Of a DNA stretch of 64,000 nt, positions 34,264 to 59,097 are shown piece after piece. The notes under the pieces were generated by a model. That model did no database searches, had not been told where the DNA came from, and worked only from the letters and a program-made list of their open reading frames with translations. Each line of letters starts with the position of its first letter. Within the stretch, counting starts at the first letter, position 1. The translations under genes were made by a program, and so were the position numbers. Source of the stretch: Ignavibacteriales bacterium (GTDB lineage: Bacteria; Bacteroidota; Ignavibacteria; UBA10030; UBA6906); contig JBBIRR010000010.1 of NCBI GenBank assembly GCA_037441705.1, positions 19,597 to 83,596 on the forward strand. The letters run 5' to 3'.

Positions 34264-34899
34264 TCATCTCTGTGCATTGACGTACTGCAGCAACCGGGAT
34301 TCAATCTCGCTGCGTATTGCCTTCCAATCAACATCCCACAACATGTTCGGCATTGGTTCTCGCTCTGCATCGTCGAAATAACTGAGAGCGCGGAGGAGAT
34401 GAGCAATGTCCCTCGTTCCGTACTTCTTCTTGTAGAGACGAATGAGAGTATCAGGAGGCTTGTGGTTCTTCAAGATGGCATAGAGATCAACGAAATCCCG
34501 CCTCGCCCCCCGATGTCCAATCGTTGACAGCTTCATGCACGCAATATCATCCAGCGATGCAAGCTTGCAGCCGAGTGAATCAGCGACGGGGGCCAGAAGT
34601 GGGTACCGATACTCTATGAACGAGACTTGCACACCGCCTATCAGCATATAAAGCGTTCCCCGACCGGTGGAGACGACCTTGAGAGGAATCCCTCCGCCAC
34701 TTAATCGAGCCTCAAGCTCCCTTAGATTTGGCAGTGATGCTGGGGTGAACCAATCCAGATACTCAGAACGACGATGTCCCAAATACAACGCTGCGGCGGT
34801 CCCTCCGGCAAGGTAGAAGCGTGTTCGCTTCAAGCGCGGGCACAGAAGACTGAGGACCTCACGTTGTCTTTCTGAGAGGATTTCGGCGTGTGGTGTCAT
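34264..34899 (-). CDS. AbiEii-family nucleotidyltransferase toxin (catalytic Asp apparently replaced)
   Basis: FYLAGGTA.AL.LGHR.SEYLDWF, DIACMKL..I..RG..RDFVDLY, L.YF.DAE. Confidence 0.85.
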   Translation of the reverse strand: MTPHAEILSERQREVLSLLCPRLKRTRFYLAGGTAAALYLGHRRSEYLDWFTPASLPNLRELEARLSGGGIPLKVVSTGRGTLYMLIGGVQVSFIEYRYPLLAPVADSLGCKLASLDDIACMKLSTIGHRGARRDFVDLYAILKNHKPPDTLIRLYKKKYGTRDIAHLLRALSYFDDAEREPMPNMLWDVDWKAIRSEIESRLLQYVNAQR

Positions 34900-35233
34900 G
34901 ATGCAGGCGGTTGTACCAGGGATTTTGCTTCGCCGTGGCAATCCATTTGCTCACGCGCCTATGGTCGAGGCCCAGCACGAGTTCCCAAAAGCGAAGCGCC
35001 TGGGGATCAAGTCCGCGCCCCTCGCGCCGCAGCATCCAGCGTCGGAGGTAGTTGTCGGAGACTCGTTGTCGAAGGTACTGAACGGTTTTCCAATCACCGT
35101 AGGTCAGCACGCGTTCGATGATATAGTCAAGATTCTTCTCCCACGTCAGTTCCTTGAAGTCCACATCCCAGAAGAGCCACTTGAGCCGGGAAGGAAGGGG
35201 AGTGCCTTTGCGTTGCGCCCTGTTCGTTCTCAT
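34859..35233 (-). CDS. DUF6922-like putative antitoxin
   Basis: LFWDVD..L......YIIERVL.YG.W; directly upstream of AbiEii. Confidence 0.75.
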   Translation of the reverse strand: MRTNRAQRKGTPLPSRLKWLFWDVDFKELTWEKNLDYIIERVLTYGDWKTVQYLRQRVSDNYLRRWMLRREGRGLDPQALRFWELVLGLDHRRVSKWIATAKQNPWYNRLHHDTTRRNPLRKTT

Positions 35234-35830
35234 CTATTTTGTGAGCGACTGTACAAGCGCGTTGAAATCCTTCTCTGCCGCGCCCACCGTCTTCGCCGGT
35301 CCTGTCAGTTTGAAGAACACCGAACCTTCCGGTGCGGCAACAATTGCTCCGAGCAGGCGGTAGTTTTCGTGCTTGCCGGTGGCTTGCATCATGGGTCCGC
35401 CGGGCGCGAGATACGTGCCAGCAATCTTCACCAACACCACCTTCAGCCCGTTCACTTCCTTGGTTGATTGTTCCGGTCCCTTGGGGTTTTCGAACTGCTG
35501 CACCCAGCGGTCAATGTTCATCTGCACGCTGCCACCCTGTTCGCTGCCGAAGAAAAACACGCCGCACTCGGCTCCTTCCGTATCGCCCGCCGCGGCAGGA
35601 ATCGTGTAGGTCGTGACGCGCATCTGCCGGGCAGGCGCCGCGCTCCACGACGAGGGAACCGTCCAGCGAATGCCCGCAACTGCCCGCACCACCTCGCCGC
35701 TGATGTCGGGATGGCCCGGGGGCAACTGTTGCTGCGTGAGTTCCGGTGGTGGAGGTGGAGTCTGCTGCTTTTGTTCGCATGCGGAGAAAACAATGGTGGT
35801 AGCAATGATAAACACTACGCTATGCTTCAT
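35234..35830 (-). CDS. Hypothetical lipoprotein
   Basis: Lipobox FSAC; LPPGHPD, W.VP..W, GG....NIDRW..QF, FFKLTGP. Confidence 0.75.
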   Translation of the reverse strand: MKHSVVFIIATTIVFSACEQKQQTPPPPPELTQQQLPPGHPDISGEVVRAVAGIRWTVPSSWSAAPARQMRVTTYTIPAAAGDTEGAECGVFFFGSEQGGSVQMNIDRWVQQFENPKGPEQSTKEVNGLKVVLVKIAGTYLAPGGPMMQATGKHENYRLLGAIVAAPEGSVFFKLTGPAKTVGAAEKDFNALVQSLTK

Positions 35831-35922: not shown

Positions 35923-36681
35923 TCAATGCGAGGAGAGTTCCCGAAACCGCCTCTCGGCGTCGGCTTTGTTCTGGATGTCGCGCGCGGTAATGATGGGCAG
36001 GTTCACCACGCATGCAAACTCTTCGCGTGCAAGTTCTTCTTTTCCCCAATCAAGATACAGCATGGCAAGCTCGTAATGATGGCGTGGGGCGTCGGGATTC
36101 AGCGCGATCGCTTTCTTCAATGCCTGCTCTCCATATTCATATGACCCGTCGGGAAGCCGACCGAGGAAGATTGCTGCAAGCTGTCGTTCGATCCAACTTA
36201 ATCCCCCAAGTGCCCGATGAAAGGAACCAAGAATAGAGTAGGCGATATCGTTGGCAGGATTGAGCTGGATGGCGCGATGGAGTTCATGCAAGATCGTGTG
36301 TGCGTACCGGATTTTCGTTCTTCCGCCGACATGCAGGGCGACGCTGCCGAGTGCAGCAGCGTACCAGGTATGCGTGTCCGCTGAAAGCGAGTCGAGTTCG
36401 ACGGCCCGTCGTGCATGCAGTTCTGCTTCGCGGTACAGCCGCTCGCTGGCTTCACCTTCTTCGACATCTCCCATACAAATCAGCACGCGTGCAAGCCGCC
36501 AGAGGACTGCCGCCGAATCGGTGTGGCGCAAAGCCGAGCGATACTCTTCGACCGCAAGCTGGTAGTTGAGCGCACCAAACGCAGAATCGCCGCGGACAAC
36601 TTCTTCCGGGCGATTCTGCGCATGCAGCAATGATGCAACGAGGACGACGGAGGAGAGGACACAGCTATTTCGCCGCCACAC
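35923..36681 (-). CDS. Exported TPR protein
   Basis: Signal peptide, TPR helices, LSWIER motif; overlaps the upstream desaturase gene. Confidence 0.75.
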   Translation of the reverse strand: MWRRNSCVLSSVVLVASLLHAQNRPEEVVRGDSAFGALNYQLAVEEYRSALRHTDSAAVLWRLARVLICMGDVEEGEASERLYREAELHARRAVELDSLSADTHTWYAAALGSVALHVGGRTKIRYAHTILHELHRAIQLNPANDIAYSILGSFHRALGGLSWIERQLAAIFLGRLPDGSYEYGEQALKKAIALNPDAPRHHYELAMLYLDWGKEELAREEFACVVNLPIITARDIQNKADAERRFRELSSH

Positions 36682-37519
36682 GTCTCACCTCAGACCCGGA
36701 GCTCAGCGAAGGTTTGCCGAACGGTCGAAATGCAAACACGAACTGTCGGAAATATCCTTCGGGCACGTAGGTCTTCAATCCATACTCCTGCGCCTTTTCC
36801 GCCGGCAACCACGCCGTGCCGAATATCCAATCCCAGATAGCCAGCTTTGTTGCAAAGTTCCGATTTCGCCCCTTGCTCGGTGTGTGATGCAAGCGGTGCA
36901 TCTCGGGTCCGTTGATGAACTGTTGCAGCTTTCCGGTGTGTACATCGAGATTGGAGTGAATGTACATGCCCCAGACAGCGCTGATGACGCCCTTGTAGGA
37001 AACGACTTCGGGAGAAGCGCTGAGCAACACGATCGGCATGAACTCGACGGTTTGGTTGATGAGAATCTCGAACGCGTGCGAGCGAGAGCCGGAAAGCCAA
37101 TCCACTTTCTTCGGCGAATGATGTGCCTCATGAATACGCCAGAGAAACTTGTTGTTGTGCTGCCAGCGGTGCATCCAGTAGATGTAGAAGTCATGAGTGA
37201 CCGTAAAGAAAACGAGCTGTGCCCACAGCGGCCAGTCGCCCATCAGTTGCAACCGCGACAACCCCGTCCACTCGTCCACCGTACGGATGATGTAGTTAAA
37301 GATGATGATGCCGAGGATGTAGCTCTGCGCAATGGTGTAGAGGGCGAGATCGTCGAAGAACCCTTCGCGCAGCACCTCCTGTCCCGGGTTGTAGGGGAAA
37401 ATGCGTTCGAGAATGACAAACAGAGTCGCCGCGCTCGCGATCATGATGATGGACGCAAGTTCAGCATCCGACATCCGCGCGAAGTAATTCACAACCCATT
37501 GCATAACATCTGAAAGCAT
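36665..37519 (-). CDS. Fatty acid hydroxylase / sterol desaturase family protein
   Basis: His boxes YWMHRWQH, LWRIHEAHHS, YIHSN, HRLHH; NFA...IWD.IFGT. Confidence 0.9.
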   Translation of the reverse strand: MLSDVMQWVVNYFARMSDAELASIIMIASAATLFVILERIFPYNPGQEVLREGFFDDLALYTIAQSYILGIIIFNYIIRTVDEWTGLSRLQLMGDWPLWAQLVFFTVTHDFYIYWMHRWQHNNKFLWRIHEAHHSPKKVDWLSGSRSHAFEILINQTVEFMPIVLLSASPEVVSYKGVISAVWGMYIHSNLDVHTGKLQQFINGPEMHRLHHTPSKGRNRNFATKLAIWDWIFGTAWLPAEKAQEYGLKTYVPEGYFRQFVFAFRPFGKPSLSSGSEVRRVAAK

Positions 37520-37530
37520 ACGCTTGACTC

Positions 37531-37610
37531 CAATCCATCAATCCATCAATGCATCACTCCATCACTCCATCACTCCACCACTCCATCACTCCATCACTCC
37601 ACCACTCCTC
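37531..37610. repeat. Tandem 8-bp repeat (CACTCCAT-like), about 10 copies
   Basis: caatccat caatccat caatgcat cactccat cactccat cactccac cactccat cactccat cactccac cactcctc. Confidence 0.9.
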
Positions 37611-38511
37611 ACACTCTCACACCCTCCTCCTCGCTCTTCACCCGCCGAAGCTTCTCCCGTTGCTTCAGCTCTTCGGGGTAGACTTTCTTGATACCGTCGC
37701 CCATCGCTTTCTCGATATCGCGGATGTTGGCGACGAGTCTCATCAATCCGCCGATCTCGACCGATGCCGCCTGATCGCTGCCCCACATCGCGCGGTCGAG
37801 CGTGATGTGCCGTTCGACGAACGTCGCTCCGAGCGACACCGCCGCCCACGTCGGTGACAGGCCCACCTCGTGCCCCGAATACCCGATGGGGCACTCGGGA
37901 TAGCGCTGCTTCAGCACGGGAATCACCCGCAAGTTCAACTGCTCCGGCGGACAGGGATAGGTCGAGGTCGTGTGAGCGATGAGGAGATGTTTCTTGCCGA
38001 GCACCCGTACCGCACGATCGATCTCCTCCATCGTTGACATGCCCGTTGAGAGGATCAACGGCTTTCCTGTTGCTCGGTGTTCCAGCAGGAGATCGATGTC
38101 CGTTACCGCAGCCGACGCGATCTTGTAGCAGGGGGGATTGAACTGTTCCATGAACGCTACGGAATCCTCATCCCAACACGATGCGAACCAGAGAATGCCT
38201 CGATCCTTGCAGTGACGGTCAATTGCTTCGTACTCTCTCTGTCCGAACTCGACCTTGTACCGATAGTCGATGTAGGTCATGCGTCCCCACGGCGTATCGC
38301 GTTCGATGTACCACTGATCCTTCGGCACGCACTTTTCGGGATTGCGTTTTTGGAACTTGACGGCATCGCAGCCCGCGAGGACGGCGCCGTCAATCAGCTT
38401 CCTGGCAAGCTCCAACGATCCGTTATGATTGATGCCGATTTCCGCGATCACGAACACCGGCTGGCCGTCCCCGACCATCTTGTTGCCGATACGAACCACT
38501 GCGTTGGCCAT
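37609..38511 (-). CDS. N-acetylneuraminate/nonulosonate synthase family (NeuB/SpsE), lacking the C-terminal SAF domain
   Basis: IAEIGINHNG, DAVKFQKR, KIASA, LSTGMST, H..STYP, GYSGHE, ERHITLDR..WGSD..AS. Confidence 0.93.
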   Translation of the reverse strand: MANAVVRIGNKMVGDGQPVFVIAEIGINHNGSLELARKLIDGAVLAGCDAVKFQKRNPEKCVPKDQWYIERDTPWGRMTYIDYRYKVEFGQREYEAIDRHCKDRGILWFASCWDEDSVAFMEQFNPPCYKIASAAVTDIDLLLEHRATGKPLILSTGMSTMEEIDRAVRVLGKKHLLIAHTTSTYPCPPEQLNLRVIPVLKQRYPECPIGYSGHEVGLSPTWAAVSLGATFVERHITLDRAMWGSDQAASVEIGGLMRLVANIRDIEKAMGDGIKKVYPEELKQREKLRRVKSEEEGVRV

Positions 38512-38535
38512 GTTACCTCCTCGATGATGTGAACA

Positions 38536-39066
38536 CTATGTGCGCTGTTGCAGCAACCATTCAGCAAAGTCTCTGAATGCGCCGTGCCCCCCATTGTACT
38601 TGCAACGATAATGTGCCACGGGCCGAACGATCGGCATGCCATCTTTCGGCGTGGCGGTAAGTCCTTCCTGTGCGAGCGCCTGCATGATCTGGAGGTCGTT
38701 GACATCATCGCCGATGTAGGCGAGGTTCTTGACCTGAAGTTGTGTTTCCTGAAGAATGTGTGGAAGATGTTGTGCCTTGTCCTGAACACCGAGATAGAGG
38801 TACGGCATGCGGAGTTTCTCTGCGCGCTTTTTCACGCTCGGTGATGTTTCGCTGGTGATGATGGCCGTCTCGATCCCTGCCTTCCGAAGCAGCTCGACCC
38901 CCATTCCGTCGCGGATGGAGAAGCGCTTGAACATCTCTCCGTTTTCTCCGTAGTAAACGCCCGTGTCCGTCAGAACGCCGTCGTTATCGGCGAGAACGAG
39001 TTTGATGTTGCGGGCACGAAGCCTGAGTTCCTTCTTCGAAAGTTTAGCTAACGCCAAGCGATTCAT
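38536..39066 (-). CDS. KdsC-like HAD phosphatase (KDO8P/KDN9P phosphatase type)
   Basis: DNDGVLTD, F..RDG.G, K, YIGDD.ND, GG.GAFR. Confidence 0.9.
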   Translation of the reverse strand: MNRLALAKLSKKELRLRARNIKLVLADNDGVLTDTGVYYGENGEMFKRFSIRDGMGVELLRKAGIETAIITSETSPSVKKRAEKLRMPYLYLGVQDKAQHLPHILQETQLQVKNLAYIGDDVNDLQIMQALAQEGLTATPKDGMPIVRPVAHYRCKYNGGHGAFRDFAEWLLQQRT

Positions 39067-39083
39067 TCTCCCAGGTACAAAGA

Positions 39084-39118
39084 ATCCACCATCCACCATC
39101 CATCATCCAAAATCCTCG
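39084..39118. repeat. Tandem 7-bp repeat (ATCCACC-like), about 5 copies
   Basis: atccacc atccacc atccatc atccaaa atcctcg. Confidence 0.75.
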
Positions 39119-39122
39119 CGCT

Positions 39123-39944
39123 CTAACACGCCGTCCATCCTCCATCCACGACGAGGTTCGCGCCCGTCATGTACGCCGAGGCATCGCTTGCCAGAAACAC
39201 AATTGCCCCTTTGTAGTCCGTCGGCGCCGCCATCCGTCCCAACGGCGTCCGCGCTGCATAGTTGCGCACGAAGAATTCATCTTGCGCATTCTCGACGCCG
39301 CCCGGCGAGAGACAATTCACCCGCACGCCTGCACGACCCCAATACGCCGCGAGAAAGCGCGTGAACGCAATGATCGCCCCTTTCGTCGTCGGGTATGCAG
39401 CCGATTTGTAGAATGCCTGCGTTCCGTCGGGACGTGTGTACAACGACTGGTCGGGCGCGACCATGCCGTACGTTGATGCAATGTTGATGATGCTGCCTTT
39501 GCCCGCCTTCGCCATCACACTCCCGATCACCTGCGAGCACACAAACGTGCCGGTCAGGTTCACATCCAACGACTTCTGCCAGAGATCGAGCGGGTAATTC
39601 TCGAACTTCGAAAGCTCCAGCGCTGCCTGGGGATTCTCAAACATATCGTTGATCGCCGCATTGTTGACGAGGACATCGATGCGGCCGAACTCCTTCAGCA
39701 CACGGTCGCGCAATGCTTCCACGGATGGTTTTTGGGTGATGTCCACGCCGCATCCCAGCGCGCGGGGTAAACCCTTGTTCATCAACTCCCCGGTAAAGGC
39801 AGCACACTGCTTCTCGTCCAGATCGGCAGCGATAACATTCGCTCCTGCTTCTGCCAGCGCGTAGCAATGGTGCTTGCCTAACAGACCGACTGCACCGGTG
39901 ACAATAGCGATTCTGTCTCTCAGCGAGAACAGGCCGTCGGTCAT
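39123..39944 (-). CDS. Short-chain dehydrogenase/reductase
   Basis: [38 protein letters not shown]. Confidence 0.93.
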
Positions 39945-39964
39945 TTCGTTAGCCCGAACTACCA

Positions 39965-40174
39965 TCAAAGATTCCTGAATTCGTCCTCGCTGAGCCGAGC
40001 TTGTTTGAGTATCTTCCGAAAAGTGCCTTCGGGAATATCGCGTGTGTGCATCGAGACATATGTCTGCCTTCCGTCCGGATGTCGAAGAATCTTATGCGAG
40101 CCTGTTTGCCGTCGCTCTATGAATCCTGCCCGAAGCAACTTTGCCAGAACTTCACGTGCCGAGTACGGCATCAT
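39965..40174 (-). CDS. hicA: HicA family toxin
   Basis: L...GF...RQ.GSH..L.H.DGR...V..H..DI..GT...IL.QA. Confidence 0.9.
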
Positions 40175-40397
40175 TTATCTCGAGCTTTTCGTAAAATGAC
40201 TCACCCTCGACAGGCACCGGTTCACCGTTCGCTCTTTTCTCTTCGATCCAGGCCGTAATAAGGTCAAGCGCCGCGACACGTGCGCCTTCTATACCAATGC
40301 CGTGTGTGGTGAGATCCAGTGCGGGCACGTGCGCGTAATAGTACCCCGAAGGAAAAGAGGGATCGGTTATTCGCTCAAATACGACGCTGTATGTCAT
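40152..40397 (-). CDS. hicB: HicB family antitoxin
   Basis: Y.V.FE....GYY...PAL...T.G..IE.A....D.I..W.E.....GEPVP. Confidence 0.88.
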
Positions 40398-40450
40398 GAG
40401 CTCCTCATGCTGTTACTCGTTTACTAAAGACTCCTTGGTCCATTGCAACA

Positions 40451-40517
40451 ATCCCAATCTCCATCCACCACTCCAACTCTCCACCACTCCCTCACCCCCT
40501 TCATCCATCCACCACAC
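40451..40517. repeat. Degenerate C-rich 8-bp tandem repeats
   Basis: cactccaa ctctccac cactccct caccccct, same family as 37531..37610. Confidence 0.6.
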
Positions 40518-41861
40518 CTACAGCTCTTTCACAGCCTTCGGTTTGATGTTGAAGTTGCTGGTCTTGCGAAACACCGGCTCGACGCACTCTCCGCGCATGT
40601 AGCCGCGTACGTTCTTCTCCTCGACGGCTTTCTTGAGAATCGGCAGGACGTCGCGATACGCCTTCAGTGTGTAGGCAACATCGTCTTCTGTATGTGAGAA
40701 GCACATCGTATGAAAGCCGCTCCACAAGATGCCGCGCTTGAACAGTTCTTGCTGCACCAGCGATTTCATCTCCAGCGGATTACCGGCAGCGGGATCGAAC
40801 GAAACGATGGATCGGAAACCGAATCCTGAACATTTCGTGTAGGTCATCCCCAGTTCGGCGGCAATCGCATTGTAGCCGTCGCGCAGTTTGCTGCCGAGCG
40901 TATCGAGATAGAGGGTCACGCGCTTGGAACGAATCTCATTGATCGTTGCTTTGACTGCTGCAAGCGACAGAGCTTCGCCGCCGAAGGTGGTAAAGAAGAA
41001 CACATCTCGTTCGAACAACGACATCACATCGCGCCTGCCGCAGAGAATGCCGATCGGCATGCCGTTGGCGACAGCTTTGGAAAATGTGGCGAGATCGGCT
41101 TTGACCCCGAAGAACTCCTGCGCGCCGCCGAGGGCAATGCGAAATCCCGTCCACATCTCATCGAAAATAAGCAGTGTGCCGTTGGCTTCGCACACCTCCT
41201 TGAGTTTGTGGAGAAAATTATCGCGCGGTGCTTCGAACACCGTCGGCTCGAGGATCACTGCGGCCGTATCGCTGTCCAGAGAGTCGACAACTGATTGGAT
41301 GTCGTTGTAGTTGAACGTGAACGTGAGGTCTTGCACCGCCTGCGGGATGCCTTTGTTGCGGTCCGTGACGCTGATGTACCAATCGTGCCAGCCATGATAG
41401 CCGCAGCAGAGAATCTTGTTGCGGCCCGTGAAGGCGCGCGCAACGCGCACCGCGGCGCTCGTCACGTCGGCGCCGGTTTTGCTGAAGCGGACGCTCTCGG
41501 CATTCGGCACGACCTCCCGCAGCAACTCCGCCACTTCGACTTCCAGAGGATGCATCATGGAAAAGGTGATGCCGTCGGCAAGCTGCGCTTTGATCGCATT
41601 GTCCACCGCCTCGTAGCAGTAGCCGAGCGAAATGGGTCCAATCGCCATGTTGTAGTCGATGTACTCGTTGCTGTCGACGTCCCACACATGCGCCCCCTTG
41701 CCGCGCACGAGATACTTCGGCGCTACGCCGCGCGTGTACTGTCCGGGTCCCTTCGCCAGCGTCTGCGTTTGCGCGGGAATCAATCCGAGTGCGCGGGCGT
41801 AGAGTTTGTCACTCTCTGTGATGATCGGATAGGTGTCGTTGAAAGCTACGGTGTTTGCCAT
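40518..41861 (-). CDS. Class III PLP aminotransferase (GSA-aminomutase-like fold, sugar-pathway context)
   Basis: G.GA..WDVD.NEYID, GYHGW.D, ILEP, IFDEMWTGFR, DL.TFSKA..NG.P, TTFGG. Confidence 0.9.
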   Translation of the reverse strand: MANTVAFNDTYPIITESDKLYARALGLIPAQTQTLAKGPGQYTRGVAPKYLVRGKGAHVWDVDSNEYIDYNMAIGPISLGYCYEAVDNAIKAQLADGITFSMMHPLEVEVAELLREVVPNAESVRFSKTGADVTSAAVRVARAFTGRNKILCCGYHGWHDWYISVTDRNKGIPQAVQDLTFTFNYNDIQSVVDSLDSDTAAVILEPTVFEAPRDNFLHKLKEVCEANGTLLIFDEMWTGFRIALGGAQEFFGVKADLATFSKAVANGMPIGILCGRRDVMSLFERDVFFFTTFGGEALSLAAVKATINEIRSKRVTLYLDTLGSKLRDGYNAIAAELGMTYTKCSGFGFRSIVSFDPAAGNPLEMKSLVQQELFKRGILWSGFHTMCFSHTEDDVAYTLKAYRDVLPILKKAVEEKNVRGYMRGECVEPVFRKTSNFNIKPKAVKEL

Positions 41862-41877
41862 GGGTCAGTCCTCGTGT

Positions 41878-41950
41878 TGGTTTCAAGGTTCAGGGTTCAA
41901 GGTCCGGATGCAGATCAGGCTGAACCGGGCACGTTCAAACCTGAACCAAC
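41878..41950. repeat. Heptamer repeats (GTTCAAG-like) with inverted copies
   Basis: gtttcaag gttcagg gttcaag ... tgaacc ... cctgaacc. Confidence 0.55.
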
Positions 41951-42847
41951 CTTTGTTATCTGTAAGATTCTCCCCGCCAACTTCTCTCCGGTGAATCCCT
42001 CATACTCCAAAACATCTTTGAGCAACGCGGGCTTGAACCAGCGGTTCTCCAACGCAATCGGATGCACGCTGCACATCGTCTGATGCTTGACCAACACCTC
42101 ACTGACGATCGTGAAAAGCCCTCCGGTCAGGAAATGATCTTCGATCGTCACCACCGTCTGCGTCTCCCGCGCGGCAGCGAGAATCGCCTCCTCGTCCACG
42201 GGCGAGAGTGTGCGCATGTTCAGCACACGTGCCGCGATGCCTTCCTGCTCGAGCAACTCTGCCGCCTTCATCACCTCACGAACGAGAAATCCGTACGAGA
42301 GCAGAGCGAAATCGTCTCCTTCTTTCAACACTTCGGCTTTGCCGATCTTGAACGTGCTGGTATGCTCGAAGGTTCTCGGCAGGGCGTTGGACCGCATGTA
42401 CGCCGGATGGGGATCGGCGATCATCGCGGCGAGCGCTTCCGCCTGTTCCTCGGCATCGGCGGGACACAGCACGCGCATATTGGGAATGCCGCGCAGAATC
42501 GAGACGTCTTCGATCGCCTGGTGTGTCGGGCCGTTGGCTTCGGAGAGGAATCCTGCTACCGCGCCGACCAGTTTCACCGGCAGGCCGGAGATGCCGACAT
42601 CGGTGCGGATGAATTCGAACGCGCGCAGCGTGAGAAATGTTGCCAGGGCATGGCAAATCGGGATGCGCCCGCGCAGGGCAAGCCCCGTCGCCGTTCCAAT
42701 CATCGTCTGCTCGGCAATCCCGAAATCAATGAACCGATTGCCAAGCAGTCCGGTAATGTTCCGCATCGCCGCGCGGTTCTCCGCCGTCAACACGACGATG
42801 TCGTCTCGCTGTTCAACAAGCAGTTTGAGTTGCTCTTCGTATGTCAT
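41915..42847 (-). CDS. Transketolase C-terminal subunit (split type)
   Basis: RFID.GIAEQ.M.G.A.GLA, F...RA.E.IR, GPTHQ.IED, PAD, EDH...GG. Confidence 0.92.
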   Translation of the reverse strand: MTYEEQLKLLVEQRDDIVVLTAENRAAMRNITGLLGNRFIDFGIAEQTMIGTATGLALRGRIPICHALATFLTLRAFEFIRTDVGISGLPVKLVGAVAGFLSEANGPTHQAIEDVSILRGIPNMRVLCPADAEEQAEALAAMIADPHPAYMRSNALPRTFEHTSTFKIGKAEVLKEGDDFALLSYGFLVREVMKAAELLEQEGIAARVLNMRTLSPVDEEAILAAARETQTVVTIEDHFLTGGLFTIVSEVLVKHQTMCSVHPIALENRWFKPALLKDVLEYEGFTGEKLAGRILQITKVGSGLNVPGSA

Positions 42848-42857
42848 GACGCGATAA

Positions 42858-42965
42858 GCTCCAGTGTTCAAGCTCCAAGGTCCAAACAAGCTCCAAGTTC
42901 CAAATCTCAACTTCCGAATTGAAAATTGATGCTGGAGCTTCTTTGGAACTTAAGTATTGAGATTT
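42858..42965. repeat. Heptamer repeats (AGCTCCA-like) followed by inverted copies
   Basis: agctcca gtgttca agctcca aggtcca .. agctcca agttcca aatctca ... tggagct .. tggaact .. tgagatt. Confidence 0.7.
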
Positions 42966-42973
42966 TCTTCCGT

Positions 42974-43831
42974 TTATCGCACGACGAGGGTCTCTGACGT
43001 GAGTTTGGCTTTGGCTCCGCCGTGCAATTCCTTGAGCAGCGCTTCTATTTCTTCGTGGCTGAAGTTGACGAACCACCGATTGGCTTGCCGTTCGATGCTC
43101 GGCAGTCCTTTGCCGCGTACCGTGTCGGCGATGATCACGTTGGGTTTACCCGCTGCAATCGGCACTGTTGCAAACGCCTTTTCCATCTCATCAAACGAAT
43201 GGCCGTCGATCCGCTTGACCGACCATCCGAAGGCTTCGAACTTGTTCTCCAACGGCTCGATCGGGATCAGCTCCTCCGTCCGCACATTCGCCTGAAACTC
43301 ATTGCGATCGACAACCGCGACGAGATTGTCCAGCCTGTACGCTGCGGCGACGAGCGCGGCTTCCCAGACCGAACCTTCGTTGAGCTCGCCGTCCCCCAAA
43401 ATCACGAACACGCGATTCGTTCCGCTTCGCATCTTGATGTCGAAGGCGACGCCCATCGCCACCGAAAGAAGATGGCCCAGCGAACCGGAATAGAATTCCA
43501 CGCCCGGAAGGTTTCTGTTCGGATGCCAGTAGATGAAGTCGTTGGTCTTCAGATGATTCTTCAGACGCTCCCTGTCGAAGAAACCCAACTCAGCAAGCGT
43601 TCCGTACAGCGCGGGAACGTCGTGCCCTTTCGAGAGGAAAAAGTAGTCCCTCGACGGGTCGTTGATACGTTCAGGCGAAACATGGAGCACGTGTTTGTAG
43701 AGATACACGATCAGATCGGCGCACGAAAGCGACGCGCCGATGAAGCATCCGCCGTCGGTTGCCATGCGGATGATGTGCTCGCGGACTTTGAGTGCGAGTG
43801 CTTCGAGTTCGTGTTTCTGATGTTGCTGCAT
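42974..43831 (-). CDS. Transketolase N-terminal subunit (split type)
   Basis: RD.F.LSKGH, HP, GSLG, GDGELNEGSVWE (ThDP motif), D.N, DGH, T..GKG. Confidence 0.92.
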   Translation of the reverse strand: MQQHQKHELEALALKVREHIIRMATDGGCFIGASLSCADLIVYLYKHVLHVSPERINDPSRDYFFLSKGHDVPALYGTLAELGFFDRERLKNHLKTNDFIYWHPNRNLPGVEFYSGSLGHLLSVAMGVAFDIKMRSGTNRVFVILGDGELNEGSVWEAALVAAAYRLDNLVAVVDRNEFQANVRTEELIPIEPLENKFEAFGWSVKRIDGHSFDEMEKAFATVPIAAGKPNVIIADTVRGKGLPSIERQANRWFVNFSHEEIEALLKELHGGAKAKLTSETLVVR

Positions 43832-43890
43832 AGCGTGTTTCCTACTTTCTCCGGATCTGCTCGGAACTGCCTTGTTGCGGTGGAGTGGCA

Positions 43891-43955
43891 TCCTTCGACT
43901 TCGCTCGCACACAGCGCTCGCTGCGCTCAGGATGACGCTTCGACTTCACTCAGCA
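43891..43955. repeat. REP-like palindromic element (TCCTTCGACTTCGCTC...CGCTCAGGATGAC)
   Basis: tccttcgacttcgctc gcacacagc gctcgctgcgctcaggatgac, then a second gcttcgacttcactcag. Confidence 0.55.
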
Positions 43956-44750
43956 CGCCCTGTACTCCGCCTCCGTTACGGTTCGCAACTCACCGGCATG
44001 ATGCCGATACCAGTTGACGCCTGCGTATTGCGCGTTCATCGCGGCAATGTCCGGTTTCGCCTCCAACAGACGCAGGATATCCTGCATGGAGAAGATCGGC
44101 TTCTCCTCCGTCCAAAGCTCGTCGTACACCCGCGCAATGAAGGCATAGTCCTCGGGATAGTCAATCGTCCAGCGATGGCTCATCGAGTAGTTGAGTCCGG
44201 TTTCCCACGCCACGTTGCCGATGCGAAATCGTTCGGGACGCTCCCAGATGAACGGTGTCGTATGCTCGCGTTCGAAATCTCTTGTCGCCTCGCGCCATGC
44301 GGTGGTCAGCGTCTCCATGGTCATCACTTCAACATCATTCCCATCGGGATAGGTAGCGGGATGCAGGTTGCTCACGTAGTCGAACTCGTTGTGATGCTGG
44401 AGGAAGAATCCCAGCACCCGATCAATTACCGCGGGATCAATCAACGGGCAGTCGGAGGGAATCTTGACAACAACATCCGCGTGACGCTCCACGGCTGCGC
44501 GATAGTGCCGATCAAGCAAATCCGTGGGATGTCCGCTGAAGCAGTCCACCTGAAGCGAGCGGCACAGGGTGCGGACGGCGTCATCTTCGGGTTCATAGGT
44601 TGTTGCGACAACGAGGTCGAACGGCGTGCTTGCCGCCTGCACGCGTTCCAGCATCCGCTGCAGCAGCGGCTTCCCCTGCAGCGGCATCAAGATTTTTCGC
44701 GGTAGACGGCTTGAGCCTGTCCGCGCTTGGACGACAACGAGCTTGCGCAT
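43950..44750 (-). CDS. Cytidylyltransferase (SpsF/NeuA-like, CTP_transf_3)
   Basis: QAR.GSSRLP.K.L, V.AT, D.LDR, D.VV....DCPLIDP, REH.T, R.T.D..ED. Confidence 0.9.
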   Translation of the reverse strand: MRKLVVVQARTGSSRLPRKILMPLQGKPLLQRMLERVQAASTPFDLVVATTYEPEDDAVRTLCRSLQVDCFSGHPTDLLDRHYRAAVERHADVVVKIPSDCPLIDPAVIDRVLGFFLQHHNEFDYVSNLHPATYPDGNDVEVMTMETLTTAWREATRDFEREHTTPFIWERPERFRIGNVAWETGLNYSMSHRWTIDYPEDYAFIARVYDELWTEEKPIFSMQDILRLLEAKPDIAAMNAQYAGVNWYRHHAGELRTVTEAEYRAC

Positions 44751-45814
44751 CAGCCGAGCCTCGCGAGAAGATGGGAAAATACGCCGCTGTACGAACGCTT
44801 GCCGGAAATGCGCCGCGCTTGGCGACGGACTCGATGCGGCGGACGTTCTTCCGGTTTCGCATCAAGCACCTGCCGGCACACGTCGGCAATTGCTGCCGCG
44901 GAAGTGCCGTTGTTCTGAATGGGAGTGAGCTTCTTCAGCTGTTGGATATCAAAATCCGAATAACACTCCTTGCCCAACGCCAATCCAACATACACCGTAG
45001 TGGAGTAGCGCGTAATGAGGACGTCGCAGTTGGCGATCATGTGTTCGGTGTTGCCGCCGGTGAACACGAGCGCGCCGGGGGCGTAGCGGTTGATTTCACG
45101 TATTGCCCGCTCGAAATTTTCGTTGGGATGAAGTTTGAAGATCAGTTGTCGTCCGTTGGCGATGCGCAGAGCTTTCTGGATGAACTTCTTTCTGTTCTCG
45201 TACTTGTACGTCTCGCGCATATCGCTGGTGCAGACGAGCACGTAGTGCTTGTGCGGGAAGTCGTTGTGGAGATACTCCCGGCAGTTGTCGAAGTTCGGGA
45301 TGCCGGTGACGACTATCTTCGCGGGATCGACACCTTTGTGGATGAACAGGTCGCGGTACCCCTCGCTTGCTACACAGAAGCGATCGTACATGTCGCTCAA
45401 GCCTGTTGTCGCGGTGCTGGCGATCCAGCGGGGGAGAAACGGAAGAGTTTTCCAGAGATGATACGCGAAATTCTCGGGGTCGGTCATGCCTTCCTGCACC
45501 AACACCACCCTCGTGTTGCGGATGTTCTTCGGCATCACAAGGTCGGAACACGTCACGACCAGGTCGTACCGGTTGCGTTTGCCTTGAAAGTCGATCGGAA
45601 GATCGTACGCATGGAGGTAATCCATGCAGCGCTTCATGAGTTTGTTGCCGAGAATGGATGATTCGAGAAGGTTCAGAGTGCGGAGGCGTTCCAGAAGTCC
45701 ATCAGCATAATAGGGTGTGAACCAATGCTCATACTCCGGCAGGTGTTGCGCCACCTTGTGGAGTTGTTTGGTTTGATTGATGGAACCGCAAACGAAAAGG
45801 ATCGTCTGTTTCAT
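44750..45814 (-). CDS. GT-B fold glycosyltransferase-like protein (candidate nonulosonate transferase)
   Basis: VQEG, VTGIPNFD, FKLHPNE, DVLIT.YST...GLALGK; first gene of the operon. Confidence 0.65.
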   Translation of the reverse strand: MKQTILFVCGSINQTKQLHKVAQHLPEYEHWFTPYYADGLLERLRTLNLLESSILGNKLMKRCMDYLHAYDLPIDFQGKRNRYDLVVTCSDLVMPKNIRNTRVVLVQEGMTDPENFAYHLWKTLPFLPRWIASTATTGLSDMYDRFCVASEGYRDLFIHKGVDPAKIVVTGIPNFDNCREYLHNDFPHKHYVLVCTSDMRETYKYENRKKFIQKALRIANGRQLIFKLHPNENFERAIREINRYAPGALVFTGGNTEHMIANCDVLITRYSTTVYVGLALGKECYSDFDIQQLKKLTPIQNNGTSAAAIADVCRQVLDAKPEERPPHRVRRQARRISGKRSYSGVFSHLLARLG

Positions 45815-46134
45815 ACGCTGGGGATGGTGTATGAGCACAGTGTTGTTCAGCAAACAGAATGTACGAGATTTCCCTCGTTTCGGTGTTGCGCGCGTATTAT
45901 CAAATTGTTAAAGAACCGCCAGACAGCGCAGCTCCATGTTTCGCCTTGAATAACAGGGAGAGCTGGACTTGCGTTCCCGGCGAACCGCCCCTGATGCAGC
46001 ACACCCAAAAATCATGAGAATTTCGCTGAGATGCAATTGCCGCGCTACGAACCCGTCTCCCGGGCGTCGGGCGTTTGCCCATACCGCGTGATTTTCGTAT
46101 CATGAGGATGAACACAAGCAGCTTTTGTTTCTTC

Positions 46135-46515
46135 ATGCCCATTCAACTTCGAAAAGAAATCATTGTCGTTGGTGACCGCGTCCTGCTCGAACCTGATGTC
46201 GGACAGGACAAGACGAAGGCCGGTCTTTACCTTCCCGAAACCGTTCGTGAGAAGGATAAAGTGATTGCGGGCAAGGTCGTCAAAGTCGGACCGGGCTACG
46301 CCGTGCCCAATCCCAACTACCTGGATGATGAGCCATGGTCGAAACCAAAAGATCCCGCACGCTACATTCCTTTGCAGGTGAAGGAAGGCGATTCGGCGCT
46401 CTTTCTGCGTGATCAGGCAATCGAAGTCGAATTCGAAGAAAAGAAGTACTTCGTCGCTCCGCAGTCGGCCATCCTGCTCGTCGTGCGGGAAGAGCTGCAC
46501 GAGGATCTTGGGTAG
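46135..46515 (+). CDS. GroES-family co-chaperonin paralog (no groEL adjacent)
   Basis: GDRVL, KTKAGLYLP, G.VVKVGPG, P.QVK.GD, IL. Confidence 0.85.
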   Translation: MPIQLRKEIIVVGDRVLLEPDVGQDKTKAGLYLPETVREKDKVIAGKVVKVGPGYAVPNPNYLDDEPWSKPKDPARYIPLQVKEGDSALFLRDQAIEVEFEEKKYFVAPQSAILLVVREELHEDLG

Positions 46516-49780: not shown

Positions 49781-50743
49781 TTAGAAGCTCAGGGTGAGCT
49801 TCACTCCTTTTCGGAGAGGGGAGACCTCAGGGGCGACCGAGAGTTTGGGCGCGTTCTGTGTGGTGGATTTCACCACATCCAGCCCTTCCGGATGCGCAGC
49901 GATCATGCCGAACTGGTATCCGAGTGCGATGCCGAGCGGGTAGTCGCTCCACCAGTGAATGCCGGTGTTGGATAGGCCAACCCCAATGCCGGCGATAATA
50001 AAGTAGGCAAGCGGTTTGAGCCACGGCTTCCACTCGGGGTAGTTCTCCATCACCACCACCAGGGTTGCCGTCGCAGTAGCAATGTGCCCCGAGGGAAACG
50101 CGTCATAGTGCGGGACGTGCTTGTGGTACTCCACCTGATCGGGAAAGAACACCCAGCGTCCGTTGGTGCGCGTGGAGACGAACGGACTTTCGCGCCCCGT
50201 GATGTGTTTGAGGACTTGAATGACGGTACCGCACGCGAGAATCGTTTCGACGAGCTGGCTTGCCGTGCGGAGGGCACGATCGTCATCCTTCCAGAACCCA
50301 TACAACCCGAACGCCGCCGCAAGGCCGAATTGCGGCTTACCGTCGCCGATGTACACAAACACGTCGCTGATGTCCTTGACCGTTCGCGAACTCTTGTACC
50401 AGCGATCGGAGAGTTCCCACACGGGCTGGTCCGTTGCAATGGCAACAGCAGTCAACGCGGTCATGGCGAGCATCGCGGGGATTCTTTCCTCGCGGAAGTT
50501 GAAGTTGGCAAACGTTACCCAATCGCCGGGGATGCGCTCGAACATGGTGTACCACCGTAACGGCTGCGTCCGCGGCTCGTTGAACGTCAACTGCAGCGAG
50601 TCGAGTGTTTGTGTCGTCGAGCTGGAGTCGGTCTTCGCGTGTGCCTTGCCCTCGGGTTCAGAGGCATAAGCCTGAACCGAAGAGGCAGCGGCGATGACAA
50701 CCAGAATTGCTCCAACAAAACTCTGCATAGATCTCCCAATCAC
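49781..50743 (-). CDS. PAP2-family phosphatase-like protein
   Basis: K...GRE.P, FPSGH, HWWSD; signal peptide; C-terminal Phe. Confidence 0.85.
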   Translation of the reverse strand: MIGRSMQSFVGAILVVIAAASSVQAYASEPEGKAHAKTDSSSTTQTLDSLQLTFNEPRTQPLRWYTMFERIPGDWVTFANFNFREERIPAMLAMTALTAVAIATDQPVWELSDRWYKSSRTVKDISDVFVYIGDGKPQFGLAAAFGLYGFWKDDDRALRTASQLVETILACGTVIQVLKHITGRESPFVSTRTNGRWVFFPDQVEYHKHVPHYDAFPSGHIATATATLVVVMENYPEWKPWLKPLAYFIIAGIGVGLSNTGIHWWSDYPLGIALGYQFGMIAAHPEGLDVVKSTTQNAPKLSVAPEVSPLRKGVKLTLSF

Positions 50744-50752
50744 CGATAGAAC

Positions 50753-51709
50753 TTAGAATGTCAATGAAACTACTACGCCAGCACCGCTTTCGCCCACCGA
50801 CGGTGAGAGAGAAAGTTTTGGGCTTGAAGCTCCTGCGCGTTCGCCGGTCGTCGCGATCTCACCATCGGTCTCCGGATGCGCGGCAATGCGACCGAACTGA
50901 TAGCCGAGCACAATCGCCAGCGGGAAATCGCTGTACCAATGCCATCCGCGGCTGACGAGAGAAACCGTAACCAATCCGACCGCTGCGTACCCAACCGGGC
51001 GAAGCCATCGTATCTCCGGATAGTTTTCAATCAGGACGGTCACCATTGCCATCGCGCCCGCGGTATGGCCCGAGGGGAATGCGTCGAACTTTGGGATAGA
51101 GCGATGATACTCTTTTTGATTTGGAAAGAAGCGCCATGCGCCGCGCGGGCGCGACTGCCGTTCGGGCCGTTCCCGCCCCGTCAGATGCTTCAACGCTTGC
51201 ACCGCGATGCCGCAGGCAAGATAGCTCTCAACCATCTGGCTTGCCGTCCGCACGGCACGCGCATCGTCAAGCGTCCATCCGGCAAGGGCGAAGGCTCCCG
51301 CCACTGCAAGCACGGTCCGGCCGTTGCCGATTTCTGCGAACGAATGCATCACGTCGCGCGACGTCTGCGTTCGGTTGCACATATCCTCCGTCGAGTGCCA
51401 GGACTGCTGATCGGCAACGATCAACGCGGCAGTTACTCCGGCAAGTCCTACCAGAGCCGGAATGCGCGACCAGCGGAAATTCTCGCCGCCAAAGCGCGCC
51501 CAGTCGCCGGGCACGCGAGTGAACATCTCATACCACGCCGGAACGTAGTCTGTTGCGATGGCACCAGCCTCAACGCCACTGAACGCTGTACCTGTGCTAT
51601 CGGCGGGTTGGGCGGTCGGCGAGGCCGCCGGGGCAGGTCCGTCCGTTTGCGACCGAGAGCCTGGCACAGCAAACAGGAACAGAGAAACCAGCGTCAGTCC
51701 CCGGATCAT
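50753..51709 (-). CDS. PAP2-family phosphatase-like protein (tandem paralog)
   Basis: K..TGRERP, FPSGH, HWYSD; signal peptide; C-terminal Phe. Confidence 0.85.
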   Translation of the reverse strand: MIRGLTLVSLFLFAVPGSRSQTDGPAPAASPTAQPADSTGTAFSGVEAGAIATDYVPAWYEMFTRVPGDWARFGGENFRWSRIPALVGLAGVTAALIVADQQSWHSTEDMCNRTQTSRDVMHSFAEIGNGRTVLAVAGAFALAGWTLDDARAVRTASQMVESYLACGIAVQALKHLTGRERPERQSRPRGAWRFFPNQKEYHRSIPKFDAFPSGHTAGAMAMVTVLIENYPEIRWLRPVGYAAVGLVTVSLVSRGWHWYSDFPLAIVLGYQFGRIAAHPETDGEIATTGERAGASSPKLSLSPSVGESGAGVVVSLTF

Positions 51710-51822
51710 GCTGATGGTGGGAGGGTGAAAGATGTTCGTGCCTTCGAAATTTGTGCGTTGAATGTCGGTGCAGCAAGAACTCGTGCCGCCTAATCTAAAG
51801 TTCTTGTAGAGGAAATGCAATT

Positions 51823-52644: not shown

Positions 52645-52711
52645 AGGAATCAAACGGGCAGATGAACGCCATTTAAGATAAGGAATTTCGGGAAAGGAGG
52701 TGCAGCGACGC

Positions 52712-52782
52712 AAAACACAGGGGCGAGAACCCCTCTGCCTGCGAGGTGACAACCAGCAGTACAGGCAGAACGATCTCGCCCC
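52712..52782 (-). terminator. Long nested hairpin/terminator after the octaheme gene
   Basis: GGGGCGAGA/TCTCGCCCC outer stem, TCTGCCTG/CAGGCAGA inner stem; TGTGTTTT tail on the minus strand. Confidence 0.65.
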
Positions 52783-52805
52783 GAAGCACGAAGCGGTGCA
52801 GGGAT

Positions 52806-59031: not shown

Positions 59032-59097
59032 AAGGATCCTTTCAAGATGAGAGTGCACGAGTGATGAGAGGGAGTACCCTCGTCAAACAGGATGATG

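Follow-up and report, generated by a model that had tools for sequence, protein, structure and literature searches.

The stretch of DNA analyzed here (64,000 nucleotides from an Ignavibacteriales bacterium, hereafter the window) carries on its minus strand, between positions 35923 and 45814, a run of co-oriented genes that we interpret, with moderate confidence, as an operon making an amino 3-deoxy-2-ulosonic acid that is activated with cytidine monophosphate (CMP) and attached to a membrane lipid. The acid would be of the type of 3-deoxy-D-glycero-D-galacto-nonulosonic acid (KDN) or 3-deoxy-D-manno-octulosonic acid (Kdo). All the genes that a first-pass annotation had listed for the run were found on this strand with the list of open reading frames (ORFs), Pfam, and NCBIfam, and each family was recovered where it had been placed, with the exception of hicB. 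The annotation had offered two interpretations of these genes. The first, in which an unusual amino ulosonic acid is made and moved to a lipid, is the one we favor, because of the logic of the core enzymes, the dehydrogenase and KdnA-like aminotransferase of the Chlorobiaceae, and the association with flippases and a hydroxylase. The second, in which a transketolase and an aminotransferase build a sphingoid base, fared poorly and is discussed below with the enzymes concerned.

The steps of the pathway, their order, and all their substrates are those that we infer from the gene content. A NeuB-type synthase of 300 amino acids that lacks the SAF domain (37609-38511, PF03102) would condense phosphoenolpyruvate with a sugar phosphate from central metabolism, and a KdsC-family phosphatase of the C0 class of the haloacid dehalogenase (HAD) superfamily (38536-39099, TIGR01670) would free the terminal hydroxyl. 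A classical short-chain dehydrogenase/reductase (SDR; 39123-39968, adh_short_C2, 164.8 bits) could then oxidize the free sugar acid at one of its hydroxyls, most probably the terminal one released by the phosphatase. The resulting carbonyl would be converted to an amine by a class III aminotransferase resembling glutamate-1-semialdehyde (GSA) aminomutase (40518-41861, PF00202, 155 bits), following the logic of the synthesis of 8-amino-3,8-dideoxy-D-manno-octulosonic acid (Kdo8N) with unrelated enzymes. A CMP-forming cytidylyltransferase of the KdsB/NeuA superfamily (43950-44750, PF02348 CTP_transf_3) would form the CMP-sugar, a divergent protein of GT-B fold (44750-45814), recognized by the fold matches of its AlphaFold model and matched by Pfam only below threshold, would transfer the sugar onto an inner-membrane lipid, and a membrane di-iron hydroxylase of the FA_hydroxylase/sterol desaturase superfamily (36665-37519, PF04116) would modify the acceptor lipid. 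Finally, a transketolase-like enzyme dependent on thiamine diphosphate (ThDP), split into an N-terminal half (42974-43912, PF00456, 105 bits) and a C-terminal half (41915-42847, PF02779 and PF02780), would provide a tailoring step that is common but not essential and acts on a substrate without phosphate. All these genes lie on the minus strand.

The conservation of the cassette is extensive. A scan with the NeuB protein, using one genome per species, gave more than 600 relatives, of which we analyzed the best 80 loci (61-87% identical), assessing synteny by tblastn with the proteins of the window and counting only over loci with sufficient flank. The same order of genes (GT-B, CMP-transferase, split transketolase-like enzyme, class III aminotransferase, SDR, KdsC-type phosphatase, NeuB, and hydroxylase) recurs in dozens of unrelated loci, an arrangement far beyond chance. 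Taken from the records, as labels of metagenome-assembled genomes that may be in error, the names of these loci span five labels (Bacteroidota/Ignavibacteriota, Myxococcota, Chloroflexota, Nitrospirota, and Hyphomicrobiales) and include Chitinophagales, Saprospiraceae, Hymenobacter, Kapaibacterium, and Polyangia. The phosphatase stands beside NeuB in 56 of 79 loci and the hydroxylase directly downstream of it in 42 of 72, while the SDR is present in 48/71 NeuB loci, the aminotransferase in 42/64, the cytidylyltransferase in 38/56, and GT-B in 36/53. The transketolase-like pair lies between the cytidylyltransferase and the aminotransferase in 26 of the 39 loci that have both flanking genes. Conservation of the cluster, which the first-pass annotation had proposed to check, is thus seen among the best 80 NeuB loci.

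Some loci keep the core of the pathway with other tailoring genes. In the Saprospirales-type loci, NeuB, the phosphatase, and the CMP-transferase are accompanied by a GFO oxidoreductase, a PhyH dioxygenase, and a flippase. The Chloroflexi-type loci also keep the core and carry genes for a sulfotransferase and for the synthesis of 3'-phosphoadenosine 5'-phosphosulfate, with no GT-B. In four of them (loci L054, L057, L060, and L061), the NeuB orthologue is found with a fused cytidylyltransferase-phosphatase, a GFO oxidoreductase, a sulfotransferase, and an ATP sulfurylase/adenosine 5'-phosphosulfate kinase, a gene content that suggests a sulfated sugar acid as product.

We then considered the co-occurrence of five of the proteins in 301 genomes of the phylum of the window, including its own genome. 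The counts were cross-read by eye from tables of related, hence non-independent, genomes: NeuB orthologues are present in 99 and GT-B orthologues in 100, 99 of them together with NeuB (genome G105 has GT-B without NeuB), the class III aminotransferase is in 43, the transketolase-like N half in 40, and the hydroxylase in 41. Every one of the 43 genomes with the aminotransferase has both NeuB and GT-B; 40 have the hydroxylase (G081, G209, and G233 lack it) and 39 the transketolase-like N half (absent from G065, G157, G185, and G193). The reverse is seen once for each gene, G102 having the hydroxylase without the aminotransferase and G221 the transketolase-like gene alone. The hydroxylase, called a desaturase in the first-pass annotation, and the transketolase-like gene are therefore both co-conserved with NeuB, the point on which that annotation had made its proposal depend. 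In several genomes (e.g., G024, G028, G138, G190, G194, and G202) over 100 kb separate the aminotransferase gene from that of the hydroxylase or of the transketolase-like enzyme, or the two are on different contigs, and since the genes co-occur even when unlinked, their co-conservation reflects more than linkage. The pattern spans about 30 genera. In two genomes (G113 and G137) the NeuB orthologue occurs twice, each copy on a contig of its own.

The sugar-acid core can be assigned to families with some precision. NeuB matches PF03102 over positions 1-241 of 241 (254.8 bits, gathering threshold 22.1) and thus belongs to the NeuB family. It scores below the equivalog cut-offs for N-acetylneuraminate synthase and pseudaminate synthase, TIGR03569 (250.1 versus 399.65) and TIGR03586 (199.9 versus 340.25), and the matches cover these profiles only up to positions 278 (of 329) and 275 (of 327), in line with a protein without SAF domain. 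Its neighbors in the PDB are SpsE (1vli) and a NeuB of 290 amino acids (6ncs). The phosphatase passes the cut-off of TIGR01670 (133.8 bits versus 106.95), as KdsC-subfamily C0 HAD phosphatases do, and its best NCBIfam match is the KDN-9-phosphate phosphatase model NF058599, at 149.5 bits for a cut-off of 180. The cytidylyltransferase matches PF02348 with 99.6 bits (cut-off 22.6), and every KdsB and PseF model of NCBIfam scores below its cut-off. The KDN-type logic of a NeuB-type synthase, a HAD phosphatase, and a CMP-transferase, which the first-pass annotation had recognized, is present in the run. Given the conserved KdsC-type phosphatase beside NeuB, the substrate of the synthase should be a sugar phosphate, for which no epimerase is needed. 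Furthermore, NeuB orthologues are found in Chloroflexi-type loci without GT-B (the four mentioned above, L076, L078, and L081), so that NeuB does not depend on GT-B for its substrate. Pfam gave no 4,6-dehydratase, no DegT-type aminotransferase, and no Wzx, Wzy, or Kps proteins over the genes of the run. Hence, the cluster does not have the signature of pseudaminic or legionaminic acid synthesis, i.e., a nucleotide-sugar 4,6-dehydratase with a DegT-type aminotransferase, and here too the first reading of the sequence was borne out, as it was for the export genes.

What do the SDR and the aminotransferase act upon? The SDR scores best, though below every cut-off, with the NCBIfam models of gluconate 5-dehydrogenase (186.8 bits versus a cut-off of 279) and of KduD-type enzymes. 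The aminotransferase reaches 374 bits with NF004856 (cut-off 486), and its neighbors in the PDB are GSA aminomutase, C-6' aminotransferases, a FumI-type aminopentol aminotransferase, and the AMT domain of mycosubtilin synthesis. The strongest argument that this pair aminates the sugar acid itself comes from the Chlorobiaceae, where a different dehydrogenase and a KdnA-like aminotransferase fill the same place. We studied 63 genomes of this family, the one in the phylum sample that includes the Chlorobaculum genome. NeuB and GT-B are both present in 55 of them, and none of the 63 has the hydroxylase, the transketolase-like gene, or the class III aminotransferase. Only NeuB and the phosphatase are together in these loci; the GT-B orthologue (55-58% identical) is elsewhere, in closed genomes typically at hundreds of kilobases from NeuB. 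In Chlorobaculum it is part of a minus-strand operon encoding an LPG_synthase_TM flippase (MprF-like, HpnL-like), GT-B, a CTP_transf_3 cytidylyltransferase, an iron-containing alcohol dehydrogenase, and a DegT-type aminotransferase. Another Chlorobiaceae genome has the same five genes, and a short stretch from a third shows two of them. The best solved relative of the Chlorobaculum aminotransferase is KdnA, the Kdo8N transaminase (5k8b; 259 bits, E value of 6e-76), the next one scoring 168 bits. A CAAX-protease-like gene lies near this operon, and a gene for a long-chain acyl-CoA ligase is divergent from it.

Two unrelated pairs of dehydrogenase and aminotransferase thus share one place in the pathway, beside the same GT-B and CMP-transferase. 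By analogy, the variant of the Chlorobiaceae supports the amination of a free ulosonic acid that is bound for a lipid. GSA aminomutase and the aminoglycoside C-6' aminotransferases act on aldehydes. These aldehyde-acting relatives, the analogy with KdnA, and the phosphatase that would free the hydroxyl concerned suggest that the amine is placed at the terminal carbon.

The evidence for a lipid-bound product comes from the hydroxylase and from the neighbors of GT-B. The hydroxylase matches PF04116 with 101.4 bits (cut-off 31), has hydrophobic segments and the histidine boxes HRWQH, HEAHH, and HRLHH, and so belongs to the superfamily; it remains far below the cut-off of the OlsE model NF052566 (113.7 versus 475). 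Genes for MprF-like flippases adjoin GT-B in loci L010, L067, L068, and L075 (LPG_synthase_TM, by Pfam) and in L008, L009, L013, and L038 (by tblastn), and MprF-type flippases adjoin the cassette in at least 10 loci overall, the operons of Chlorobiaceae being among the places where they were seen. A gene resembling those of the small multidrug resistance (SMR) family follows the hydroxylase in 8 loci (Hymenobacter, Saprospiraceae, and others), and four Chloroflexota loci have a GCN5-related N-acetyltransferase (GNAT) in place of the hydroxylase. A flippase beside GT-B, as in the layout of HexSDF, and a co-conserved integral-membrane hydroxylase argue together for a product bound to a lipid.

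Which lipid would this be? In 7 Ignavibacteria loci OlsF follows the hydroxylase (731 bits, cut-off 620), often followed in turn by a metallophosphoesterase. Five loci (L025, L031, L041, where these genes lie at about 10.1-14.7 kb, L044, and L048) have a same-strand OlsF and/or metallophosphoesterase after the hydroxylase and a PstS-like gene nearby. This context hints at phosphate-sparing lipid remodeling, in the Ignavibacteria loci only. We considered ornithine lipid as a general acceptor and rejected it, because OlsF is adjacent only in these 7 loci and was not found in the genome of the window. As for ceramide, the best match in this genome to an alpha-oxoamine synthase resembling serine palmitoyltransferase (Spt) scores 490 bits, below the curated cut-off of 640, which only 11 genomes of the phylum sample pass. 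At E values up to 1e-120 the CFB Spt model matches 233 of the 301 genomes and also Bacillus subtilis, one of the controls, so this threshold blurs Spt and its relatives. About 1.3 kb beyond the aminotransferase of the Chlorobaculum operon there is a gene for a membrane protein of the ceramidase family (PF05875; L086, 4636-5289, minus strand), a possible link to ceramide metabolism.

The CMP-sugar could instead serve, like Kdo8N in Shewanella, to decorate lipopolysaccharide (LPS) or a different surface glycan, with the hydroxylase acting on the acyl chains of lipid A. We regard this as improbable. Full cassettes are present in two loci labeled Chloroflexota (L039 and L064), a phylum regarded as generally lacking LPS, which makes LPS unlikely as the common acceptor. 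Moreover, the proteins that adjoin the cassette in other genomes, i.e., the MprF-type flippases and the SMR-like proteins, are handlers of small lipids, and the run has none of the Wzx, Wzy, and Kps genes searched with Pfam. There are GT9 genes, but they are set apart from the cassette by the housekeeping gene ispE and by a gene for an LD-carboxypeptidase on the opposite strand.

Several observations weigh against our proposal of an aminated, lipid-linked ulosonic acid. The models at equivalog level in NCBIfam (NeuB, KDN-9-phosphate phosphatase, KdsB, OlsE, and transketolase) all give scores below their cut-offs. The iron-containing alcohol dehydrogenase of Chlorobaculum resembles the Kdo 8-oxidase KdnB only weakly, at 55 bits and rank 33 of 34. 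The window contains neither a flippase nor an SMR gene, and tblastn with the Chlorobaculum flippase gave none in the genome; the same method gave no OlsF there. Five cassette-positive genomes (G013, G018, G023, G028, and G033) have no Spt-like match at E values up to 1e-120, so that ceramide, an appealing acceptor in the case of the Chlorobiaceae, cannot be the universal one. Lastly, the closest folds of the GT-B protein, a putative transferase, are those of NeuC-type epimerases.

This last point deserves attention, because the first-pass annotation had called the protein a GT-B transferase. The fold is confirmed: the AlphaFold model (pLDDT of 88.8) matches NeuC, UDP-GlcNAc 2-epimerases, TagF, polysialyltransferase, and MurG. 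As to the function, Foldseek places epimerases and transferases alike at E values of 1e-10 to 1e-8 and gives no ranking by fold. If the protein were a NeuC/LegG-like hydrolase or 2-epimerase feeding NeuB, the cluster would make a variant of the sialic or legionaminic type, with the transferase encoded elsewhere. We find this unlikely, although such folds are the closest ones. The match to PF02350 is under the gathering threshold (22.7 versus 30.6), and 30 of 32 members of the GT-B family give only weak matches, with a best E value of 5e-6, whereas two true Epimerase_2 proteins encoded by this genome reach 407 and 366 bits. A comparison of profiles between the GT-B family and a genuine Epimerase_2 protein of this genome gave a probability of 0.4% (E value of 0.14), and in its convincing stretch the PEE of the epimerase is aligned with PRW. 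The PEE motif is catalytic in epimerases. The genomic context points in the same direction. The KdsC-type phosphatase implies a sugar-phosphate substrate made without an epimerase, and NeuB occurs in loci without GT-B. In the Chlorobiaceae, GT-B is away from NeuB and travels with the late steps of the pathway, namely the CMP-transferase and the KdnA-like enzyme, and with the flippase; it is the sole transferase candidate there. Hence, we hold a transferase to be considerably more probable than an epimerase, and propose from this context that GT-B is a CMP-ulosonate:lipid transferase.

The transketolase-like enzyme is the most unusual component of the cassette. Among solved structures it is nearest to the split transketolase of Carboxydothermus hydrogenoformans (6yak and 6yaj) and to human transketolase (4kxu). 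We surveyed its motifs in an alignment of 20 N-half and 23 C-half homologues, with the numbering of Escherichia coli. The residues that bind ThDP and Mg or activate the cofactor (GDGE, DRN, and the Glu of (A/T)EQ) are retained in most homologues, two C halves reading EM. In the E. coli enzyme, as described in the accessible text of PMC11387542, H26, H100, H261, D469, and H473 bind the hydroxyls of the sugar, and R358, S385, H461, and R520 bind the phosphate of the substrate. Here, all 20 N halves have Phe in place of H26 (motif GGCF.GASLS) and either Phe or Tyr in place of H261 (motif RW[FY]), and all 23 C halves have Asn in place of D469, while the equivalents of H100 and H473 are retained. 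In the phosphate site, the position of H461 is hydrophobic, ENRA replaces the Ser385 motif, the position of R520 is variable, and the C half begins in its homologues at MTYEE, past the segment that would carry R358. The two halves score 228.6 and 200.8 bits with the transketolase model of NCBIfam, for a cut-off of 488. From these motifs, we conclude that the enzyme should bind ThDP yet be unable to handle sugar phosphates as transketolase does. The transketolase N and C genes of the first-pass annotation are thus indeed split halves of a ThDP enzyme, but not of a canonical transketolase: catalytic histidines have been replaced and the phosphate-binding residues are gone.

Could such an enzyme act with the aminotransferase on a fatty aldehyde, building a 2-amino-1,3-diol that is then hydroxylated and capped with the CMP-sugar? 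The residues are suggestive. All four phosphate-binding residues are lost, and the positions of H26, H261, H461, and D469, now Phe, Phe or Tyr, hydrophobic, and Asn, are the ones altered when E. coli transketolase was evolved toward non-phosphorylated aliphatic and aromatic aldehydes, according to the part of PMC5073344 that was accessible. The co-conserved hydroxylase would also fit. Yet, the aminotransferase does not depend on this partner. The transketolase-like genes are missing from 13 of the 39 loci with both flanking genes, and the N half from 4 of the 43 aminotransferase-positive genomes. Among cultured carriers, Hymenobacter (L066, L070, L073, and L080) has the cassette with these genes and Ignavibacterium album (L031) has it without them. 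In five Ignavibacteriaceae genomes without them, the best match is an ordinary transketolase (34-37% identity versus 53-87% for orthologues), and the aminotransferases are still 73-76% identical to that of the window. The transketolase-like enzyme is therefore dispensable. In addition, Pfam found no acyl-CoA or acyl-ACP reductase in the cassette that would form the aldehyde, the genome already has an Spt-like enzyme, the nearest models of the SDR are sugar-acid dehydrogenases, and a KdnA-like sugar-acid transaminase replaces the aminotransferase in Chlorobiaceae. We thus consider a sphingoid base made by this route very improbable. The ganglioside-like glycolipid of the first-pass annotation may still be an apt description of the product, but its lipid would be made elsewhere and not by the cassette. 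A GHMP kinase gene found upstream of the transketolase-less loci was considered as a substitute for the missing enzyme and discarded, as it is the housekeeping IspE (TIGR00154, 195-205 bits versus a cut-off of 138.7).

Within our proposal of an aminated ulosonic acid, the transketolase-like enzyme and the aminotransferase could act in cascade on the terminal aldehyde of the sugar acid, the first adding a C2 ketol and the second aminating the ketone. The retained equivalents of H100 and H473 suggest a dihydroxyethyl-ThDP intermediate, perhaps derived from hydroxypyruvate. The product would be a C10-C11 ulosonic acid ending in a 2-amino-1,3-diol and carried by a ceramide-type or other membrane lipid, and the simpler version in Chlorobiaceae would be the gene set, so far missing, of the aminoglycosphingolipid of green sulfur bacteria. 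We offer this elaboration as a speculation of low probability.

The boundaries of the operon and its other genes are less conserved than the cassette itself. The operon likely starts in the divergent intergenic region of 320 bp at 45815-46135, its presumed promoter region on the minus strand, flanked by the ATG of GT-B at about 45814 and by a plus-strand ORF that begins at 46136. A scan for consensus promoters and terminators gave the same counts as in shuffled sequence. A longer ORF for GT-B, extending to 45853, was rejected, as its 13 extra codons are unsupported. Between the aminotransferase and SDR genes lie hicA (39965-40174; HicA_toxin, 63 bits) and, upstream of it, an ORF of 81 amino acids (40152-40397), the pair covering 39965-40397 on the minus strand, with the stop of hicA overlapping the start of the SDR gene. 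The first-pass annotation had read the pair as hicBA; hicA stands, whereas the putative HicB has no match in Pfam or NCBIfam. Both are absent from all 80 related loci, even from L003, the closest, whose flanking genes are 84-93% identical, and hence the pair is a recent insertion in the operon, toxin-antitoxin-like and outside the pathway. At the other end, a gene for an exported protein with tetratricopeptide repeats (TPR) and an N-terminal signal-like segment (35923-36681, minus strand; RMD1-3-like, PF21033, 65 bits) overlaps the stop of the hydroxylase gene. It is kept after the hydroxylase only in loci L003, L004, L007, and L013, and by this distribution appears to be a lineage-specific addition. 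It is followed by a gene for a small predicted lipoprotein of no known family (35234-35830, minus strand; ATG at 35830, then a lipobox-like FSAC), conserved only in the two closest loci, L003 and L007. The longer ORF over this gene has no Pfam match, and we predict that the gene is a lineage-specific tail of the operon.

Around the operon we noticed a few other elements. An AbiEii-type toxin gene (34264-34941, minus strand) lies directly downstream and makes, with hicA, two toxin-antitoxin-like modules within 6 kb. On the other side, the divergent plus-strand ORF (46136-46515) encodes a protein whose N terminus resembles GroES/Cpn10 by eye; the longer ORF at 46075-46515 has no NCBIfam match at E values up to 1e-20, and a minus-strand ORF of 151 amino acids over the same DNA looks spurious. 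A few kilobases upstream of the operon (49781-53208, minus strand) there are two tandem paralogues of PAP2 lipid phosphatases, with 48% mutual identity, and a DUF3108 protein. There are also a thioredoxin-TPR protein and HtpX in between, and a link between PAP2 genes and the cassette was seen in no other locus. Also on the minus strand, two multihaem cytochromes and an S8 protease (52806-54218, 56923-59058, and 60344-63979) each carry a C-terminal sorting domain of type IX secretion.

The potential implications of these results extend beyond the window. The core of NeuB and GT-B is present in about a third of the sampled genomes of the phylum (99/301) and the full cassette in a seventh (43/301), and the cassette is also found in at least four other labeled phyla. 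If our proposal is correct, many environmental bacteria bear an acidic, amine-bearing lipid head group, similar to sialic acid, that lipidomics has not yet recorded. The amination of ulosonic acids would have a second, independent enzymatic solution, and nature would have altered a transketolase-like enzyme at the positions that engineers change to reach non-phosphorylated substrates. It would also provide candidate genes for the aminoglycosphingolipid of Chlorobium, chemically known since 1991. A search of full-text literature, which leaves subscription journals and supplements largely outside, gave no description of this combination of genes.

The comparison with known systems shows which parts of the pathway have precedents. 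The synthase and the phosphatase of the KDN-9-phosphate pathway of Bacteroides thetaiotaomicron have been characterized biochemically, and the synthase uses mannose-6-phosphate. As in that pathway, the cassette has side by side a synthase of the NeuB family, a C0 HAD phosphatase of KdsC type, and a cytidylyltransferase that would form the CMP-sugar. It differs by the scores of the phosphatase and the synthase, both under the equivalog cut-offs given above, and by the addition of the SDR, the aminotransferase, the transketolase-like enzyme, GT-B, and the membrane hydroxylase. A KDN-9-phosphate route also occurs in Prymnesium parvum, according to the accessible text of PMC6200933. The Kdo8N system of Shewanella oneidensis (KdnB, 5k8c, and KdnA, 5k8b) provides the precedent for a dehydrogenase and an aminotransferase that aminate a free ulosonic acid before its activation with CMP, and the variant of the Chlorobiaceae carries both a KdnA-like enzyme and an iron-containing alcohol dehydrogenase. 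In contrast, an SDR of the classical type and an aminotransferase of class III stand in the window where that system has the iron-containing alcohol dehydrogenase and the DegT-type enzyme, and the synthase is of NeuB and not KdsA type; the cassette would thus follow the logic of Kdo8N synthesis without belonging to that system.

The transketolase-like enzyme has a parallel in AniP of anisomycin synthesis. This ThDP enzyme, also transketolase-like and of natural origin, has neither the histidine network nor the residues that bind phosphate, acts on non-phosphorylated substrates, and works alongside an aminotransferase, AniQ, as far as the accessible text of PMC11387542 tells. According to the same text, AniP is a single chain, with a DXS-like layout of the active site and an arylpyruvate donor, whereas the enzyme of the window is split, is nearest to short-type or split transketolases, and keeps the equivalents of H100 and H473; the two share a superfamily. 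For the transfer to lipids, HexSDF of Clostridioides difficile, in the portion of PMC10128005 available, also has a lipid glycosyltransferase beside a protein with an MprF-like flippase domain and makes an amino-sugar glycolipid. It differs in that HexS is of the monogalactosyldiacylglycerol-synthase type and uses hexosamine, the amine arises by deacetylation, and neither an ulosonic acid nor a CMP-sugar takes part.

The Chlorobium limicola aminoglycosphingolipid is the known product that comes closest: it is a sphingolipid of a green sulfur bacterium with an amino sugar acid, and 55 of 63 Chlorobiaceae genomes carry NeuB and GT-B, with a ceramidase-family neighbor at one Chlorobaculum GT-B operon. 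The sugar of this lipid was reportedly described as neuraminic acid. KDN aminated at its terminal carbon would be an isomer of neuraminic acid, of identical mass. The lipid (Jensen, Knudsen and Olson 1991, Arch Microbiol 156:248) is cited in PMC11762602, and the literature that we could search, largely outside subscription journals, gave no genes for it and nothing on its sugar. KDN-type synthesis, Kdo8N-type amination, and the glycosylation of lipids with an MprF-like flippase thus each have a precedent, whereas the literature searched gave none for their combination with the transketolase-like enzyme and the hydroxylase.

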